Positions 22,480 through 56,184 are shown, counted from the first letter of the stretch. The stretch is 63,508 nucleotides of DNA from Bacilli bacterium (GCA_045598145.1 JAZLLM010000001.1:1-63508), one strand, 5' to 3'. Numbers and translations are program-made. Notes: generated by a model from the letters alone, not told the origin.

Positions 22480-23808
22480 TTACTCCATAAATCCACGATA
22501 TTGTCTTTCTTGTTGTTGTTGTTTTAATTGTTGAGCTGTTTCAACAGCAACACCAACAACGATGATAAGACTTGTACCACCGATTGAAACTGATCCAGGT
22601 AATTGGAATATTACTGTAAAGATTATTGGAAGGATAGCAACAAGAGTTAAATATGTTGCACCAATCATAGTAATCTTGAATAATACTCTTGAAATATATG
22701 ATGCAGTTTCATCACCAGGTCTAACGCCAGGAATATATGCATTTTGCTTTTGTAAATTTTCTGCCATCTTTTCTGGATTCATTTGTAAGAATGAATAGAA
22801 GAATGAGAATAAGAAAATTAAAATAATATATAAGCAGAATCCACCAACATTGATTACAGTTAATCCTTCTGCGTTTGTATATGTAGTAGCGAAGATTTTA
22901 TATAATACTAGTGATGCACCAGTTAATCCACTACTACTATTACCATTGATTAATTGAATAATAGTTGTTGGTAAACTCATTAAAGTTGAAGCAAAAATTA
23001 CAGGGATAACAGATGCTGAATTTAGTTTAATTGGAATGTTACTATCATTCTTTCCTCTAAATGCAGCAGCTGCAGGTCTATTAGCATATTGAATAGGAAT
23101 TTTTCTTTGAGCAGCTTCCATAAATATAATGAAGACAATAATTAATAATAACATAATGATTACAAAGATGAAGATAAAGATATTTCTTGTATCAGCATTT
23201 GTAATATAAGTTGTTACTAAGTCTTTAATCATACCAGGGAATGAAGCTAAGATACCAGCACAAATCAACATTGATGTACCGTTTCCAATTCCCCATTTAG
23301 TAATTAATTCTGCTAACCATAAACAGAATGCAGTACCACCAGTAGCAACAATTGCTAAGTAGATATATAATACTGCTTTATTTAAATCTAAACCTCTAGT
23401 TGCGAAATAAATTCCATTATAACTTTGATCAACACCAATTACTAATGTTAATGCTTGTACAAAAGCTAAACCTAATGCTATATATCTAGTTACTTGGTTT
23501 AATTTTTGTTTTCCAGTTTCTCCTTCTTCGCTCCATTCTTTGAATGCTGGAACAATGTCCATTTCTAATAATTGAACAACGATAGAAGAAGTAATATATG
23601 GGCTAATACCCAAGCAAATAATAGAAAAATGTTGTAATGCTCCACCACTTAATGCATTTAAGAATCCAAAATCAATTGATGTTTGGAATTGTACATCGAT
23701 CATAGGAAGAGTTACATAATAACCCATCTTATAGATGAACAAGAATAATGCAGTAAATAATAGCATTTTAATTATTTTCTTTGCATTTGCTGATAAACTT
23801 GAAGCCAT
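22480..23808 (-). CDS. secY: Preprotein translocase subunit SecY
   Basis: 10-TM conserved SecY sequence in the canonical position. Confidence 0.96.
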   Translation of the reverse strand: MASSLSANAKKIIKMLLFTALFLFIYKMGYYVTLPMIDVQFQTSIDFGFLNALSGGALQHFSIICLGISPYITSSIVVQLLEMDIVPAFKEWSEEGETGKQKLNQVTRYIALGLAFVQALTLVIGVDQSYNGIYFATRGLDLNKAVLYIYLAIVATGGTAFCLWLAELITKWGIGNGTSMLICAGILASFPGMIKDLVTTYITNADTRNIFIFIFVIIMLLLIIVFIIFMEAAQRKIPIQYANRPAAAAFRGKNDSNIPIKLNSASVIPVIFASTLMSLPTTIIQLINGNSSSGLTGASLVLYKIFATTYTNAEGLTVINVGGFCLYIILIFLFSFFYSFLQMNPEKMAENLQKQNAYIPGVRPGDETASYISRVLFKITMIGATYLTLVAILPIIFTVIFQLPGSVSIGGTSLIIVVGVAVETAQQLKQQQQERQYRGFME

Positions 23809-35962: not shown

Positions 35963-36075
35963 AAATATTACCTCTCATAAATATAGTATACTACTTTTTT
36001 ATTATCTTTAATATAAATTATTTTATTTATTTAATTTTTATGATAAAATAAATGCATAAAAGAAAAGGAAAAATT

Positions 36076-38199
36076 ATGAAAAGAAAAATTTTATATCTAT
36101 TATTAATTGTATTCGCGCTTTTCTTTATAGCTTGTAAAGAAAAGATAGAGACAAAAACAGACCAAGAAATTGTAGATGAATTTATTAATACCATCACATT
36201 ACCTGAAACATTAACTGAATCTCTAAATTTACAAAATGTATATTCAAATGAAGGAAATGAATTCTATGCAACTTGGGAATCTAGCAATAAGAGAATATTA
36301 ACTAATGATGGTAAATATTACCTTAGCAAAAATTCTGATATCATTACATTAACTTTAACACTTAAATACAAAGATGTTAGTAGTGAAAAAACATTTGAAC
36401 TATACGTAAGCGAAAGTCCAATTAATTCTATTTTGATGGCTGCTTATAATGAATTAGATATCAAAAAAGAATTATCAAGTGATCTTGTAATTCCATCTAC
36501 ATTCAAATATTCCACATACACTATTGAAGCAAGCATTGTATCAAGTGATGAAGACATCATCAATAATAATGGTGAAATTGCACTACTAAAAGAAGATAAA
36601 GAAGTGAGTCTTGATATCATTTTAAAAATGGGTGATACTGCATCTACAATAACAGAAAAGTTCACAGTACTTAAAGTTGATGAAAGTAAAGTAAGCAATA
36701 TTTTAAAAGACTTAGGTTATGATAATTCATACGAAGAAAATCTAAACTTACCTAACAAGATATATTATAATAATAAAGAAATATTTGTAACATGGAGTAG
36801 CAATAATCCTAATGTATTAAGTAACGCTGGTATAATAAACCCGCAAAGTAACGATACCAATGTTAGTTTAACAGCTAGTACTGAATATGGATCATATACA
36901 TATAATGTAATAGTTAAACCATTATCTGATGCAACTTGTATTCAAAATGCATTAAGTTATATAAATATTCCTAATTTAATTACAAGTGATATCTTATTAG
37001 ACACCGAATTAAATTATGGTGTAAAAGCTGAATGGGTATCATCTGATGAATCTATTTTATCAAATGATGGAAAATTAACTAGTAATCAAGCATATAAAAA
37101 TATTACTTTAACACTTAAACTTAGCAAAGGAGACGAAACATATATGAAAGAATATAATGTATCAGCAGGAAAACAAGACCATCTATTCTTAGATAGAACT
37201 TTTGAAGGTGAAAAAGAGAATGTATGTATTCAAAATGGTAAATTAGTATTAGAAAGTGGAGCTACTTTAGGTTCTTATACAACTAAAGAAATCTCTACTT
37301 TAGATTACGATGAATGCGTTGGTTCATTCGCTGCTATCACATCAAAGAATGCAACATGTGAATTAATGGTTAGATTGTATTCAAATGGTAAATGGAGTAA
37401 GTATTTCACATATGGTACATGGGGAAGAGCACTTCAAAATGTATGTCCAACTGGCCAATCAGATACATACGTTAAAATGGTTGAAGACGAAATCTTACTA
37501 AAAGATAATAACGTTGCAAATAAGTTCCAATTAAAAATCACTTTAAGAAGAGATAATGCAAGTTATTCTAGTCCAATTGTTTCTTTAATCGCTTTATCAC
37601 TTAGATTTAAATCATATACTTATAATGTTGATATAAAAGATTTAGCTAAAGATGTACATCCAGATGTACCAAAACTAAATCAAGGTGTTGTACCAGAAAT
37701 TGGTGGATCAATTTGTAGTGCTACTACATCTACTATGCTTCTTAAAAATAAAGGTCATAGTTTCGCAAACCTTAGTGAAGAAGATTATGAATTAGATCCA
37801 AAATTCTCTAAAAGTCAAACTTCATATGAACATGGATATATTGCATATATCGTAAGAGATTATGGTAACAATATCTTCGGTAACTGGGTATATAATTGTA
37901 TTGGTATATCTTCTTATGGAGAAATATCATATGTTAAAAGAATGTATTCTAATGAAGAATTAATGTATCATTTAGCTACAGTAGGACCTGTTGGATGCTC
38001 AATCAAAGGTAGTGTTGTAAATGGTGTTAAAAACTACACTACAGGCGGACATTTAATCGTAGTAACTGGATATAGAATTAATGATGATGGCTCTAGAATT
38101 TTCTATATCAACGACCCTAATGTACCAAGCGTTAGTGTTGAAATGACTGAAGATGCCCTAAATAATGTTAATAGAGGCGTTTATTATATCGTTGAATAA
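36076..38199 (+). CDS. Lipoprotein with three atrophied-Ig-like repeats, a central beta-rich domain and a C-terminal C39-like (papain-fold) cysteine peptidase domain
   Basis: Lipobox LFFIAC. Threefold repeat (ATWESSNKRILTNDG / VTWSSNNPNVLSNAG / AEWVSSDESILSNDG). C-terminus has GGSICSATTSTM ... GGHLIVVTGY ... NDP (Cys/His/Asn-Asp). Start set at ATG 36076. Confidence 0.65.
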   Translation: MKRKILYLLLIVFALFFIACKEKIETKTDQEIVDEFINTITLPETLTESLNLQNVYSNEGNEFYATWESSNKRILTNDGKYYLSKNSDIITLTLTLKYKDVSSEKTFELYVSESPINSILMAAYNELDIKKELSSDLVIPSTFKYSTYTIEASIVSSDEDIINNNGEIALLKEDKEVSLDIILKMGDTASTITEKFTVLKVDESKVSNILKDLGYDNSYEENLNLPNKIYYNNKEIFVTWSSNNPNVLSNAGIINPQSNDTNVSLTASTEYGSYTYNVIVKPLSDATCIQNALSYINIPNLITSDILLDTELNYGVKAEWVSSDESILSNDGKLTSNQAYKNITLTLKLSKGDETYMKEYNVSAGKQDHLFLDRTFEGEKENVCIQNGKLVLESGATLGSYTTKEISTLDYDECVGSFAAITSKNATCELMVRLYSNGKWSKYFTYGTWGRALQNVCPTGQSDTYVKMVEDEILLKDNNVANKFQLKITLRRDNASYSSPIVSLIALSLRFKSYTYNVDIKDLAKDVHPDVPKLNQGVVPEIGGSICSATTSTMLLKNKGHSFANLSEEDYELDPKFSKSQTSYEHGYIAYIVRDYGNNIFGNWVYNCIGISSYGEISYVKRMYSNEELMYHLATVGPVGCSIKGSVVNGVKNYTTGGHLIVVTGYRINDDGSRIFYINDPNVPSVSVEMTEDALNNVNRGVYYIVE

Positions 38200-47171: not shown

Positions 47172-47440
47172 AAAAAACGTCCTTATAAACAATGTATGTT
47201 TATATAAGGACGAATAATAATCGTGGTACCACCTTACTTCGTTAGTACTTTACAATACTAACCTCATCAAGCACAATCATGCTTTATCGCTTTAACGGGC
47301 GAACACGTCACAGCCTACTAAATTCCTTGTTTGGTGTGCAGCATAAGAAATGTATTCAAATAAATATTGTATTATCTTGCACCGAACGATAACTCTCTAT
47401 AAATCAATAATTTATTTTACTCTTTTTCTATCATAGCTTT
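47172..47440 (-). promoter_or_regulatory. T-box riboswitch leader with Tyr (UAC) specifier, including terminator/antiterminator
   Basis: Stem I has AAGAGUA opposite GAA-UAC-A (47357-47351), an AGAGAG bulge and a GGUGCAA distal loop. Also present: a CCGUUA F-box, AAGGUGGUACCACGA (47235-47221), and the terminator CGUCCUUAUA(U)AAAC/GUUUAUAAGGACG plus U6. Confidence 0.88.
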
Positions 47441-47454
47441 TATGATATACATAA

Positions 47455-51643: not shown

Positions 51644-51722
51644 CAACAAATAAGAAAATAAACAAAAAATATAAATATTTATCGTTTTCATAATATATTA
51701 AAAAAGATAAAGTCTTTAAACT

Positions 51723-52610
51723 TTACCCTTTTATAGAAAATGTATATGATACATAATTACCATTCTTATATTCTAATGTGTAAACATAAATTTTATTAAC
51801 TTCTATATCAACACTTAGTCTTTTAAACCATTTCTTTTCATATAACACTTCTTCATTGCTTAGTTCACTATTAAAATCATATGACTTTAAAGTGAATTTT
51901 TTAAATCTATGACTTAGTTTAATATTTTCAGTATCAAAGTTTATTTTAAAACTTGAATTTAAATCATAAGTGGAAGTAGAATTTTCATTTAATTCATATA
52001 TATCAGCATCCTCAAATGATTTATTATTCCATTTATAATTAGCTCTCATTAGTCCTTGCATTCCAAAATATTCTTTATAAGAATTACTTGATTTCTTTTC
52101 AATTAAAGAAATACTTAAATTATCGGGATTAATAAGAAACTTATCAATATTTCCCATTACTTCAATACCGCACAAATCATAGAAATAGATAGCGCATTTA
52201 TTAAAAATTCTTCCCGGTGATGCATTTTTACCTATTGAAGTTATAGTTTTTCCGCTATCAAAACTAATCTCTAAATTCCAACCGCCACCATCAATTATTT
52301 TCATTAAAGTATTATATTCATCCTTTATTCTAAGCAATCCACATTTATTAATTCCATTAATAAAAGTGGTTTCAGCATCCTCTTCAAACATTCCTTCACT
52401 AATTATCCTATTACTTTCTTCATGCCCTGGTAAATAACCTTCAATTTTGTATTTATTATCAATAAAATTGAATATATAACTTGTAGTATAACCTCCATTA
52501 TAATCAATTTCTTTGTATACTAGCTTTTCAATTTTATCTCCTTTATAGGTTGCACAAGAACATAATAAAATTATAAATGTTAAACATAATAATAGATGTA
52601 TTTTTTTCAT
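51723..52610 (-). CDS. Lipoprotein of unknown function (last gene of the ECF-serpin operon)
   Basis: Lipobox ILLCSC. No recognisable family. Lies 12 nt after the serpin stop. Confidence 0.65.
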   Translation of the reverse strand: MKKIHLLLCLTFIILLCSCATYKGDKIEKLVYKEIDYNGGYTTSYIFNFIDNKYKIEGYLPGHEESNRIISEGMFEEDAETTFINGINKCGLLRIKDEYNTLMKIIDGGGWNLEISFDSGKTITSIGKNASPGRIFNKCAIYFYDLCGIEVMGNIDKFLINPDNLSISLIEKKSSNSYKEYFGMQGLMRANYKWNNKSFEDADIYELNENSTSTYDLNSSFKINFDTENIKLSHRFKKFTLKSYDFNSELSNEEVLYEKKWFKRLSVDIEVNKIYVYTLEYKNGNYVSYTFSIKG

Positions 52611-52622
52611 TTGTTATATCCT

Positions 52623-53870
52623 TTAATTTATAGGATTATAAATTATACCCATAAATAATATAACATCATTTGAATCAGTAATATAATAAATAAAAGGTTT
52701 ATTTAAATTCATATATAAACATGGACTAGCTTCTTCTGCTTTGGCTCCACCAAATGTTATAGCTGCTGCTTTGGCTCCTTCTTCATCTAATTCGATACCG
52801 CAAATTTGATCAATATATTCAAAATATAATCTTTCATCGCTAATTTTGCTTAAATTACATTCATTTGCATCAAATAATGATTCCAATCCTAAATCAATTA
52901 AATTATCTCTTAATGTATATTTTAATTGATATTTAAATTTAGGCAGTGAATAATTAATTGATGTTTTTTCAAAATTAGTTTTACCAGCTAATAATAAATA
53001 AAATTGATCTTCTTTAAATATATCTTCTACTGTGTATCCTTCGTTTGGTAAAACATAGGTAATTTTATTGTTATTATTAAAATAATCGCAAGCTAAAGTA
53101 AAATGTTCTCCTAAAAAATATTCACCATAAATTTCATGATGCATGAAATCTGCGCTTACATCTCCATTATAACTATAGAAAGTAGAAGCATATGTATTAT
53201 TTTTTAAATACTTGCTTTGCCATTTGTTATTAAAATATATACTATTTACTAAAAATAAAACAACATCGGTTAAATCAAAATCGTCTTCTTTTACATTTAG
53301 AAAATCGAATGTATTATTATTCATCCATTTAAGAATATTTTTCTTTGTTTCAGAATCAAATGCTGCACGGAATATATCAGCTTTATAATCATTACATAAA
53401 GTATTTACATATTCATCTTTAAATGACATATTTTTATGTAGCCATATAGAATTAGCAATTCTAAGTTTTCCTCCATCATTATCATATTCATTATTCAAAA
53501 TGGTGTTTTTGATACCATTTCGCAAAGTATTTACATCACAATATAAAACATTGTTTAGCTCTGATAGAGTTACTCCATCTGCACCTTCAGCAATCATTGA
53601 AAGAGCAATAAGTAAACTAATTGGTGAGTATATTTGATTATTTTTCTTGTTGTTAAATATATTTAAAGATGTCTTATATGCAAAAGTATTAAATAGATTT
53701 ACATAATTTGCTTCAACATTATATTCTTCTTTTGCGCTTGCCTTATGCTCTACCTTATTTACTATTTCAAAATTCTTAGTTTCTTTAATTTTGTTGCTTG
53801 AACAAGAACATAAAGAAAAACTAAAAAATATGGTAAGTATAATTATTAAAAGTATTCTATTTATTTTCAT
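52623..53870 (-). CDS. Serpin-family protease inhibitor, lipoprotein-anchored
   Basis: Lipobox SFSLCSC. Hinge/RCL DEEGAKAAAITFGG..., then NKPFIYYI and the C-terminal LFMGIIYNP serpin signature. Confidence 0.88.
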   Translation of the reverse strand: MKINRILLIIILTIFFSFSLCSCSSNKIKETKNFEIVNKVEHKASAKEEYNVEANYVNLFNTFAYKTSLNIFNNKKNNQIYSPISLLIALSMIAEGADGVTLSELNNVLYCDVNTLRNGIKNTILNNEYDNDGGKLRIANSIWLHKNMSFKDEYVNTLCNDYKADIFRAAFDSETKKNILKWMNNNTFDFLNVKEDDFDLTDVVLFLVNSIYFNNKWQSKYLKNNTYASTFYSYNGDVSADFMHHEIYGEYFLGEHFTLACDYFNNNNKITYVLPNEGYTVEDIFKEDQFYLLLAGKTNFEKTSINYSLPKFKYQLKYTLRDNLIDLGLESLFDANECNLSKISDERLYFEYIDQICGIELDEEGAKAAAITFGGAKAEEASPCLYMNLNKPFIYYITDSNDVILFMGIIYNPIN

Positions 53871-54387
53871 TTGCTTCTATAACCTCCTCTTCGCTTAATA
53901 TTAACTCTCGTTCATTAACATTAGCTACAAAATAATTTCCTTTCTCTAAATATACTATATCAAATTCTTCAATATTTATTTGATAAACATTAGTAAAAGC
54001 AGAAGCGATTTGAGCAGTATATAATGGTGAATATGGTTCTAAACTACCATCATGTTGAAATTCTTCATCGTTATAAACTTTAATTCCTTTGATTACATTA
54101 GTACTTCCATCTATTTCAACTTTTTTTTCTAGTGAAGATGGCTCAGGTTCTTCTGCTTTTGGATTATTAGCTTTATTAATATTTGGTAATAAAATCATAG
54201 CAAATCCGAAAGCGATAATTAATATACAAGCAAAAGATAAACCTATTCTCTTAAAAGCTAAAGTAAAGCTTTTCTTATGAACAGTTTTATATACAATTTT
54301 ATTTTTAATCAAATCAAAATTTGGCTCATATTCACAATTTTCATTGATTTTTTGAATTAGTTTCTCTTCTTTTTCCATATTCTTCAC
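53857..54387 (-). CDS. Putative anti-sigma factor (single-pass membrane protein)
   Basis: Starts immediately after the sigma-factor stop. Short cytoplasmic N-terminus, one TM helix (LSFACILIIAFGFAMILL) and an extracellular domain of about 100 aa. No ZAS motif. Confidence 0.6.
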   Translation of the reverse strand: MKNMEKEEKLIQKINENCEYEPNFDLIKNKIVYKTVHKKSFTLAFKRIGLSFACILIIAFGFAMILLPNINKANNPKAEEPEPSSLEKKVEIDGSTNVIKGIKVYNDEEFQHDGSLEPYSPLYTAQIASAFTNVYQINIEEFDIVYLEKGNYFVANVNERELILSEEEVIEANENK

Positions 54388-54909
54388 CTATTGCTTTACT
54401 TTTTCAAGTGCACGATAATATTTAGTTTTAATAGTATTAGCACTTTTATTATTTCTTTTACCTATTTCTTCAAACGTATCACCAAATATTATATGGCATA
54501 TAACAATATTAACTTCTTCGTCATCAAGTACTTTTTTTAATAATTCAATCATTTGATGTAAGTTACTTGTGTGGTCACTTAAATCTTCATAAATATAATT
54601 ATCATCGCTTACGATATCTAATCTCTTTTTATTAATAAAATTCAATGCCATATTTTTAGCACTTACTACTATATAGTATTTAATATTTTTCTCTTCAACC
54701 AATGTTTCTCTCTTATTAAATATAGAAAGAAAAGTCTCACTAACTAAGTCCTCAGTATCATTATAATTTTTAACTATTTCATTAATGCACGTAAAAGCTA
54801 ATTTAGCATATTTATAATAAATACCTTCGAAGCCCTCTTCTTGAATTTCTCGGTTTTTAGATTTTAATTTTTTAATTAATATATTGTCAGGTAAAAATAC
54901 ATTATTCAT
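54388..54909 (-). CDS. ECF-type sigma-70 family RNA polymerase sigma factor
   Basis: Regions 2 and 4 are recognisable (…DLVSETFLSIF…, …FEEIGKRNNKSANTIKTKYYRALEKV). 173 aa. Confidence 0.85.
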   Translation of the reverse strand: MNNVFLPDNILIKKLKSKNREIQEEGFEGIYYKYAKLAFTCINEIVKNYNDTEDLVSETFLSIFNKRETLVEEKNIKYYIVVSAKNMALNFINKKRLDIVSDDNYIYEDLSDHTSNLHQMIELLKKVLDDEEVNIVICHIIFGDTFEEIGKRNNKSANTIKTKYYRALEKVKQ

Positions 54910-54935
54910 AGCTCACCAACATCTTTAACGTATTT

Positions 54936-54964
54936 ATTATAACAAATAATTATGAAAAATCCAA
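54936..54964 (-). promoter_or_regulatory. Sigma-A-type promoter of the ECF operon
   Basis: Minus strand TTGGAT (54964-54959), 17 nt, TATAAT (54941-54936), with TGT extended -10. Confidence 0.55.
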
Positions 54965-55011
54965 CTATATTCATATAATAATACAACTATATAGTCAATA
55001 TAGTTTCAAAA

Positions 55012-55034
55012 AAGAGTGCAAAAAATGCACTCTT
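55012..55034 (-). terminator. Intrinsic terminator after the 381-aa lipoprotein gene
   Basis: AAGAGTGCA-ttttt-TGCACTCTT plus TTTT on the minus strand. Confidence 0.8.
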
Positions 55035-55038
55035 TTAT

Positions 55039-56184
55039 TTATTCAGGTATTTCTACATCAAATGATGAGATATTGCTTGTAAATTCAGAAACTTGTTCAG
55101 AAATGCTCTCACCATTACCTGTTGCGAAAACTAATTTAGTTACTGGATCTTGATAGAATACCATTTTGTATTCGTAATCTGTTCCTTCTTCAAATGTAAT
55201 AACTAACTTATCACATGTTACACCAGCTATAACTTCTGTTCCTTCTTTAATACCTTTTAAAGCTTCTTTTGCTCTATTGAAAACAAATCCTAAATATTCA
55301 TTATATACTGAATCAGGTGTGAAATATTCAGATTCAAATGCTAATTCCCAATCTTGAGATTCATATTTTGTATATACTTTAGTTGAAGCGCTTGAGAAAT
55401 CAAAGAACAATTCAGTTCCGTTATTATAATATAATTTTGAACCAATCTTAATTGCAGTTACATCATCAAATACAATTTTAAAGTTTTCAGGAATATAATC
55501 AACTAAATCCATAGCTTCTGGTAATTTAATTGGTTCGATACCAACTTTTAATTCTTTTACTTCAAATCCTACACTAGCACTCTCTGTACCAACTTGGCTA
55601 CTTGCTTCCCACTTCATACAGATACCTGTTTCTTGATCTAAATAGTAAATATAGCCAAATGAATACATACCTAAATTGCTATATCCATATTGGTATTTGT
55701 CACAAGTTCTACCAGCAATTTTAGCAGTTCCGTCTTTTTTCATATTAGAACCATAACTGTAACCTAATAATAAATAAGTATTATAAATTGTTGTAAGTGA
55801 AGATAAAGAACCATCTGTATCAGTCATACGTCTTTCATAAGTCCATTCTCCATCAGAATAGTTCCAAATATAAATTAAATCATCTGAAACTCTAAAAGCA
55901 GCTCCGCTATCTCCAGAAATATACCATGAATATTCACCGCTAGCACCAATTGTCATTTCATCATCTTCACCAGAACCTTCAGAATCATAAACTACATAAA
56001 TAGCTTGATATCCTTTTTCAATTGCTAATTTTTTTAATTTTTCGTTTTCTTCATCATATGTAGTTTCTAGACTTTCTCCCTCTTCATCATCATTACCACC
56101 ATCGTCAATGATTCCGCTTAAATCACAAGCACACAATGAAAAAATCATTACTACACTCAAAAATAAATAAAATATTTTTTTCAT
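55039..56184 (-). CDS. Lipoprotein of unknown function with an acidic linker and two internally similar halves
   Basis: Lipobox IFSLCAC followed by a D/E-rich linker. Repeated motif IAGRTCDKYQY / IAGVTCDKLVI. A LolA/DUF4367-like fold is only a guess. Confidence 0.6.
   Translation of the reverse strand: MKKIFYLFLSVVMIFSLCACDLSGIIDDGGNDDEEGESLETTYDEENEKLKKLAIEKGYQAIYVVYDSEGSGEDDEMTIGASGEYSWYISGDSGAAFRVSDDLIYIWNYSDGEWTYERRMTDTDGSLSSLTTIYNTYLLLGYSYGSNMKKDGTAKIAGRTCDKYQYGYSNLGMYSFGYIYYLDQETGICMKWEASSQVGTESASVGFEVKELKVGIEPIKLPEAMDLVDYIPENFKIVFDDVTAIKIGSKLYYNNGTELFFDFSSASTKVYTKYESQDWELAFESEYFTPDSVYNEYLGFVFNRAKEALKGIKEGTEVIAGVTCDKLVITFEEGTDYEYKMVFYQDPVTKLVFATGNGESISEQVSEFTSNISSFDVEIPE

Follow-up and report, generated by a model that had tools for sequence, protein, structure and literature searches.

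Pathways governed by extracytoplasmic-function (ECF) sigma factors become active when the anti-sigma factor is proteolysed, and sigW-rsiW and sigV-rsiV of Bacillus subtilis are autoregulated ECF sigma/anti-sigma operons of Firmicutes. Serpins are scattered across bacterial genomes, and to our knowledge the way in which they are regulated has been established for very few of them, in essence for those of Bifidobacterium. At the serpin locus of Bifidobacterium breve, as summarised in PMC8012564, an adjacent protease-inducible two-component system controls the serpin (Alvarez-Martin et al. 2012). Here we describe an operon of a Bacilli bacterium in which the gene for a lipoprotein serpin lies directly behind the genes for an ECF sigma factor and a single-pass membrane protein, a putative anti-sigma factor that is referred to below as the partner. 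The operon lies on the minus strand of a stretch of 63,508 nucleotides (nt) (GCA_045598145.1, JAZLLM010000001.1:1-63508), the whole of which is called the window. The operon is best explained as one that its own ECF sigma factor controls and that carries, as cargo specific to the lineage, an inducible protease inhibitor anchored in the membrane. We give this explanation, jointly with the proposal that the four genes form one transcription unit with a terminator on each side, a probability of roughly 55%.

Four minus-strand genes, identified from the open reading frame listing and the sequence, are tightly packed in the order sigma factor, partner, serpin and a lipoprotein of 295 amino acids (aa). 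The partner and serpin genes overlap by 14 nt, and a gap of 12 nt separates the serpin gene from the lipoprotein gene, both exactly as given in an initial annotation of this DNA. The same annotation placed the sigma stop codon against the ATG of the partner. The adjacency holds, but the codon that the sigma TAG directly abuts is a GTG, and an alternative ATG lies 9 nt downstream at 54378. Because this ATG is preceded by a ribosome-binding site, AGGTGA, which shares bases with the stop codon of the sigma gene, translation of the partner more probably starts there, giving a protein of 173 aa, than at the GTG. A simple terminator scan detected none from the sigma gene to the last gene, so that a transcript from the ECF-type promoter would have to read through into the serpin gene. 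A probable terminator follows the last gene, where a segment of 91 nt folds with -15.3 kcal/mol (z = -2.3). On the other side, a palindromic terminator (55036..55010) closes the upstream lipoprotein gene, which bears out the earlier view of that gene as an independent one. The gene layout supports the proposal that the serpin shares one transcription unit with the ECF sigma factor and its membrane partner.

Two promoter elements, one ECF-type and one sigma-A-like, precede the sigma gene, where a single promoter had been assumed. The sequences of 140 nt that precede the sigma genes were lined up for comparison among metagenomic and assembly loci, which are designated here by L-numbers; the sigma family is known to us from Logan, ENA, JGI and NCBI assemblies. 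A TGAAAC(T) block followed by GTATTATTA is present in all eight distinct loci (the window, L005, L018, L020, L022, L025, L026 and L028). The spacing of the two blocks is 17 nt, or 16 nt in L018; the -35 block reads TTAAACT in L005, and L025 carries two tandem copies of the motif (1120-1230). The remainder of the intergenic regions upstream of the sigma genes cannot be aligned between loci, and the upstream genes differ as well. An AAC-containing -35 element together with a conserved -10 element before the sigma factor's own gene is a hallmark of ECF regulation. Because such elements precede the sigma gene here, the conserved blocks support a reading of TGAAACT-N17-GTATTATTA as the putative autoregulatory promoter of the ECF sigma factor. 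Thus, the proposed search for an ECF-type promoter upstream of the operon was successful, and the motif provides a handle for reporter fusions, in-vitro transcription and a regulon search in complete genomes of the lineage.

Copies of this promoter elsewhere had also been envisaged. The search for them covered the 63.5-kb window, in which the perfect motif occurs once (55008..54976) and has no other intergenic copy. Three further matches within two mismatches all lie in coding sequence, and their number is at chance level (shuffle mean 1.7). A perfect GAAAC-N-GTATTA match in secY (22681-22710, minus strand) was rejected as a false positive, being part of a conserved coding stretch that is kept in the relatives L011 and L015. 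In addition to the ECF-type element, TATAAT is found at a similar position in seven of the eight distinct loci, in six of them in the extended form TGnTATAAT, which suggests that the sigma-A-like element is a basal housekeeping promoter. Neither TATAAT nor a TGAAAC...GTATTA element is present in the 200 nt before the serpin gene in the window, L005 or L006, and strong ribosome-binding sites are found there instead. A promoter of the serpin's own, which would have spoken for expression independent of the sigma factor, was thus not recognisable in these three loci. Because the ECF promoter is conserved and the serpin genes share no promoter element of their own, the serpin is supported as a same-operon output of the ECF sigma factor.

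The order sigma-partner-serpin is common to the window, L005 and L006. L005 is syntenic with the window and encodes, in succession, the sigma factor, a 197-aa transmembrane protein, a serpin that is 42% identical to that of the window and overlaps the preceding gene by 8 nt, and iorA. L006 encodes the sigma factor, a 211-aa transmembrane protein and a serpin of 43% identity. The three linked loci are well diverged, with identities to the window and to each other of 51-58% between sigma factors, 39-45% between serpins and 39-58% over the proteins as a whole. Because the order recurs in two divergent loci with tight junctions (-8 nt and +10 nt), the arrangement is judged to be more than chance.

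The sigma/partner pair has a fixed neighbourhood, following either hydAB or tldD/pmbA, and what lies on its two sides varies. Downstream of the pair are found an aminotransferase gene in L020, an ABC transporter after a gap of 350 nt in L022/24 and L028, a second protein with LRR_5 repeats in L025 and a double-zinc-ribbon protein in L026. The upstream slot is filled among relatives by the 381-aa lipoprotein gene, by a gene for a Flg_new protein or by nothing. Because orthologous pairs with the identical promoter carry no serpin behind them, the pair is regarded as an older, syntenic module of the lineage that existed before the serpin joined it and does not serve the serpin alone. In L026 (911-1195) and L027 (25-249) the module's ECF promoter is immediately preceded by a C-terminal serpin remnant, which corresponds to residues 330-413 of the window serpin with 49-51% identity, and the N-terminal part of the serpin is replaced by a Peripla_BP_3 gene in opposite orientation. 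This is taken to be a second, decayed form of the serpin-module adjacency. Even without any sensing of proteases, the locus would illustrate how a lineage-specific sigma/partner module acquires different surface-protein cargo across relatives.

The sigma factor matches TIGR02937 (sigma70-ECF) with 53.9 bits against a cut-off of 42.9 and Sigma70_r2 with 28.3 bits against a cut-off of 24. The match to Sigma70_r4, at 19 bits, stays below its cut-off of 24.1. The hidden Markov model check that had been proposed therefore confirmed Sigma70_r2 and the serpin, left Sigma70_r4 below threshold and returned no anti-sigma domain in the partner. By these profile matches the 173-aa protein is classed as a small, two-domain ECF (group 4) sigma-70 factor. 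By the same searches it belongs to no ECF group or equivalog that has been named. The highest-scoring subfamily model is TIGR02985, with 63 bits where 126 are required, and the models for SigV, SigX, SigZ and SigW, with 25-34 bits, stay far below their cut-offs of 169-260. With a profile built from the three linked sigma sequences, about 30 metagenomic relatives with identities of 40-61% are detected; sigma alignment scans of GTDB species genomes and JGI metagenomes returned no relatives.

The partner is predicted to consist of about 45 cytoplasmic residues, a transmembrane helix at residues ~48-66 and an ectodomain of 110 aa, close to the extracellular domain of roughly 100 aa in the initial annotation. 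A single-pass partner is encoded directly downstream of the sigma gene in nine of nine loci, each with one hydrophobic helix within residues ~45-79 and Lys/Arg before the helix. The N-terminal ~35 aa are conserved (K.E.K.I..IN....Y..I+.KI), and tblastn with the window partner detects those of L025 and L020 with E = 1e-8 and 5e-7, respectively. A word-indexed homology search with the partner returned only the query itself, the homologues appearing through tblastn against the loci and through alignment. The window partner has no significant match of any kind in Pfam or NCBIfam. Neither it nor seven orthologous partners contain an anti-sigma domain of these collections, and the partner sequence has no HxxxCxxC zinc-binding motif. 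The ectodomain is hypervariable, ranging from 110 to 329 aa and barely aligning between loci. A single-sequence structure model of the partner has a predicted local distance difference test (pLDDT) value of 48, which is too low to interpret. The identification of this protein as an anti-sigma factor is favoured by its position after the sigma gene and its single-pass design and disfavoured by the lack of a recognisable anti-sigma domain. As a putative anti-sigma factor, the partner would bind and sequester the sigma factor.

The serpin matches PF00079 (E = 3.4e-60), with positions 4-370 of the 370 in the profile covered, and its closest solved structure is tengpin (2pee/2vh4, E = 2e-37, residues 43-410). 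Its hinge reads EEGAKAAAIT, and the pattern E-E/Q-G-x-K-A-A-A-x-T is kept in all eight close relatives. With small, uncharged residues at P15-P9, such a hinge is compatible with loop insertion and fits a serpin of inhibitory type. The distal part of the reactive-centre loop differs completely among relatives, including the three linked serpins. By eye, the alignment gives Glu as the nominal P1 residue, 17 residues from the hinge Glu. This assignment is uncertain because the loop is two residues longer than that of alpha-1-antitrypsin. The signal peptide ends in ...FSLCSC, an LCSC lipobox whose cysteine (C23) is invariant in relatives, and nearly all serpin relatives have lipoprotein signal peptides. 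About 20 relatives are detectable in 5.8 billion proteins, the best being 43% identical. Ahead of an unlinked serpin, a short open frame (L001:560-700 and L002:2150-2290; …LTFIVEKLYLPLATVKRRVFEVRNKLKKL…) is similar to the end of a sigma region 4 and may be what is left of a sigma gene; it has no Pfam support and was not used as evidence.

The 295-aa lipoprotein has no significant Pfam or NCBIfam match. Its signal peptide ends in ...ILLCSC, with a cysteine (C19) that is invariant in the family, and that of the 381-aa protein encoded upstream of the operon ends in ...FSLCAC. Read from the sequence, the signal peptides of the serpin and the 295-aa and 381-aa lipoproteins have the lipobox LC[SA]C in common. 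The 295-aa family comprises 157 representative clusters at E<=1e-3, of which 33 match at E<=1e-30, with the core DGGGW...C...FYDLCG and two conserved cysteines. An AlphaFold2 model (m48c2ffdd08d3; mean pLDDT 93) has two domains, and a fold search of PDB with this model gave no match at E<=1e-3, only noise such as PCNA with template-modelling scores of about 0.1-0.2. Members of the family in 15 metagenomic loci have varied contexts, often among other lipoproteins. At L037:292-1736 a lipoprotein serpin comes about 25 nt after a homologue of 36% identity, an order opposite to that in the window, and we regard this as a second, independent co-occurrence of the two families. Members of the family and serpins occur together in 2 of about 9 contexts. 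Because the syntenic operon of L005 lacks the gene, the serpin there directly preceding iorA, the 295-aa lipoprotein is considered an accessory rather than a core part of the unit. The earlier suggestion that it acts in the unit as a co-factor, decoy or sensor is weakened accordingly.

These features are best accommodated by the following scheme. In this genome and a small number of related ones the serpin gene would have entered immediately after the partner gene, with the second lipoprotein gene next to it in the window; without promoters of their own, both would have become outputs of the sigma/partner module. The weaker, housekeeping-type basal promoter would maintain a pool of sigma factor held at the membrane by the partner. 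Upon inactivation of the partner by an envelope signal, the freed sigma factor would activate the ECF promoter, resulting in overproduction of the sigma factor, the partner, the membrane-anchored inhibitory serpin and the 295-aa lipoprotein. The serpin would then protect surface proteins against extracellular serine proteases. In this scheme we infer from sequence the sigma-partner binding, the nature of the signal, the inhibition exerted by the serpin and its target, and the role of the lipoprotein.

Several observations weigh against such an ECF-controlled inhibitor operon. The partner, by the searches above, belongs to no known anti-sigma family. No serpin follows the orthologous sigma/partner pair in L020, L022/24, L025, L026 and L028, which have the same promoter. 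The survey of serpin neighbourhoods suggested in the initial annotation found adjacent ECF sigma genes in L005 and L006, but serpin relatives in L001/2 (42% identity), L003/4 (36%), L007 (31%) and L045 (27%) lack a neighbouring sigma gene. A single insertion event may underlie all three linked loci, so that their linkage would reflect inheritance rather than selection. Finally, owing to the conserved sigma-A-like promoter, the serpin may in part be expressed without the sigma factor.

The initial annotation went further and proposed a closed protease-sensing loop, which we consider possible but unlikely. In the form considered here, the partner ectodomain would be a sacrificial sensor: an exogenous serine protease would clip it as bait, intramembrane cleavage would free the sigma factor, and the lipid-anchored serpin would neutralise the protease and so turn the signal off. 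Regulated proteolysis is the classical mode of inactivation of ECF anti-sigma factors, and the serpin is an output of the module. The ectodomain of the partner starts with a Pro/Glu/Ser-rich juxtamembrane linker (NNPKAEEPEPSS), and its hypervariability is expected if accessibility, not a fixed fold, matters. The wholly different distal loops of the three linked serpins are likewise expected for inhibitors that track external proteases. The protease-inducible serpin of B. breve, with its adjacent two-component system, provides a precedent as far as it is summarised in PMC8012564. However, the module and its promoter occur without a serpin behind them in L020, L022, L025, L026 and L028, so that the module may originally have answered to something other than a protease. 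Within L025:1823-4013, the ectodomain of 329 aa is a ligand-binding domain of the BspA-type LRR_5 kind, and the second LRR_5 protein follows 2 nt later. The missing anti-sigma domain of the partner also argues against the loop. If it did operate, the locus would encode a self-contained sense-and-inhibit ECF circuit in a host that is a relative of the wall-less Mollicutes and may have its membrane proteins exposed to an unusual degree, and a protease inhibitor as hard-wired output of a proteolysis-activated pathway would make a neat feedback design.

It is rather improbable that the adjacency has little regulatory meaning, the serpin and the lipoprotein occupying a variable slot and being expressed mainly from the housekeeping-type promoter or an unrecognised internal one, with ECF control incidental. 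Different genes do occupy the flanking slots of the module in different relatives, and the TGnTATAAT promoter before the sigma gene is conserved. The GC content of the operon genes is 24-26%, compared with 30-33% for the flanking hydA and iorA, which is consistent with an accessory origin. In AT-rich DNA such as this, promoter-like hexamers are frequent, 50 being found against 41.5 expected. However, three divergent loci retain junctions that overlap or nearly abut, the serpin gene has no conserved promoter element before it, and read-through from the ECF promoter meets no terminator on the way to that gene. In a further alternative, internal damping, the target of the serpin would be the protease that cuts the partner, either the cell's own site-1 protease or a different endogenous one at the surface, and the operon would thereby limit its self-activation. 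Such damping would suit the translational coupling implied by the 14-nt overlap and the anchoring of both proteins in the same membrane leaflet, but it is very doubtful because no protease gene lies in or adjoins the operon in the window, serpin-free modules presumably work without such damping, and the hypervariable reactive-centre loop is better suited to external targets that change than to an endogenous target that is conserved.

The features of the operon and its borders are collected in Table 1.

Table 1. Coordinates in the window of the serpin operon, its promoters and the elements that border it.
Feature	Position	Strand	Remarks
Intrinsic terminator of the 381-aa lipoprotein gene	55010..55036	-	palindrome AAAAGAGTGCA-N5-TGCACTCTTTT and T-run; bounds the operon on its 5' side
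ECF-type promoter, TGAAACT-N17-GTATTATTA (putative)	54976..55008	-	conserved upstream of orthologous sigma genes
Sigma-A-like promoter, TTGGAT-N17-TATAAT, extended -10 TG	54936..54964	-	consensus match; between the ECF promoter and the sigma start codon
ECF sigma factor	54388..54909	-	173 aa
Membrane partner, putative anti-sigma factor	53857..54387	-	176 aa from GTG
Lipoprotein serpin	52623..53870	-	415 aa
295-aa lipoprotein, uncharacterised family	51723..52610	-	accessory cargo of the operon
Probable intrinsic terminator of the operon	51700..51728	-	GGGUAAAGUUUAAAGACUUUAUC hairpin, 12-bp AU-rich, then U6
381-aa lipoprotein gene, upstream	55039..56184	-	own strong terminator; outside the operon

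The operon is flanked by iorA on one side and by the 381-aa lipoprotein gene and hydrogenase genes on the other. RseB is a periplasmic modulator of the sigma-E anti-sigma factor, and the 381-aa lipoprotein has a sub-threshold match (E = 0.0034) to the N-terminal domain of MucB/RseB (MucB_RseB). Its membership in the system was rejected, given that the terminator separates its gene from the operon and that the gene is not found at this position in related loci. The window has a GC content of about 30% and carries a ribosomal-protein/secY cluster, an operon for an electron-bifurcating-type [FeFe] hydrogenase and iorAB-paaK. In a genome scan the best matches of its SecY, at 61-65% identity, are uncultured Bacilli and metagenome-assembled genomes of Acholeplasmatales, and on this basis the host is assigned to uncultured, low-GC, Acholeplasmatales-like Bacilli. 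Elsewhere in the window, a T-box leader (47203-47443, minus strand; 121 bits) precedes an operon for an AMP-binding ligase, an Amidohydro_2 protein and a class I/II aminotransferase; more common targets of T-boxes are aminoacyl-tRNA synthetase or amino-acid transporter genes. The wider neighbourhood also encodes a large protein with aBig_2 and Peptidase_C39_2 domains (36052-38199, plus strand), a conserved cysteine-peptidase-like surface protein that is also found at L028:10010-10513.

Like sigW-rsiW and sigV-rsiV of B. subtilis, the window operon appears to combine a two-domain sigma factor co-transcribed with a single-pass partner and an autoregulatory promoter next to a housekeeping one. 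The -35 block TGAAAC is identical to the sigma-W consensus, whereas the -10 block GTATTATTA is not of the CGTA/CGTC type. Unlike the B. subtilis operons, the partner has neither HxxxCxxC nor a known anti-sigma domain, and the cargo is a protease inhibitor. The serpin itself resembles tengpin of Thermoanaerobacter tengcongensis (2pee, 2vh4), its best match, and miropin (5nct) in its full-length serpin fold and inhibitory-type hinge. However, the match is distant (E = 2e-37), the window serpin is predicted to be lipid-anchored through LCSC, and its reactive-centre loop is unrelated to theirs.

The closest regulatory parallel is the serpin locus of B. breve in the account of PMC8012564. In both cases a signal-transduction system of the envelope, encoded next to the serpin gene, controls or would control the serpin, and a protective function against environmental proteases is proposed for both. 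The system there is a histidine kinase with a response regulator, whereas an ECF sigma factor and a single-pass partner take this place here, and no two-component genes flank the window operon. Moreover, the window serpin lies inside the regulator's own, apparently autoregulated operon, unlike the B. breve serpin as described in that account. B. breve is an actinobacterium, whereas the window host is Acholeplasmatales-like with low GC content. By the same account, induction by protease has been demonstrated in B. breve, whereas for the window operon it is a hypothesis. A full-text search of the searchable literature found no link between serpins and ECF sigma factors; within this scope, the initial view that a serpin as same-operon output of an ECF sigma factor had not been described holds. 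Both elements, bacterial serpins under regulation and ECF operons that control themselves, are well known, and it is their combination in one operon that appears to be new.

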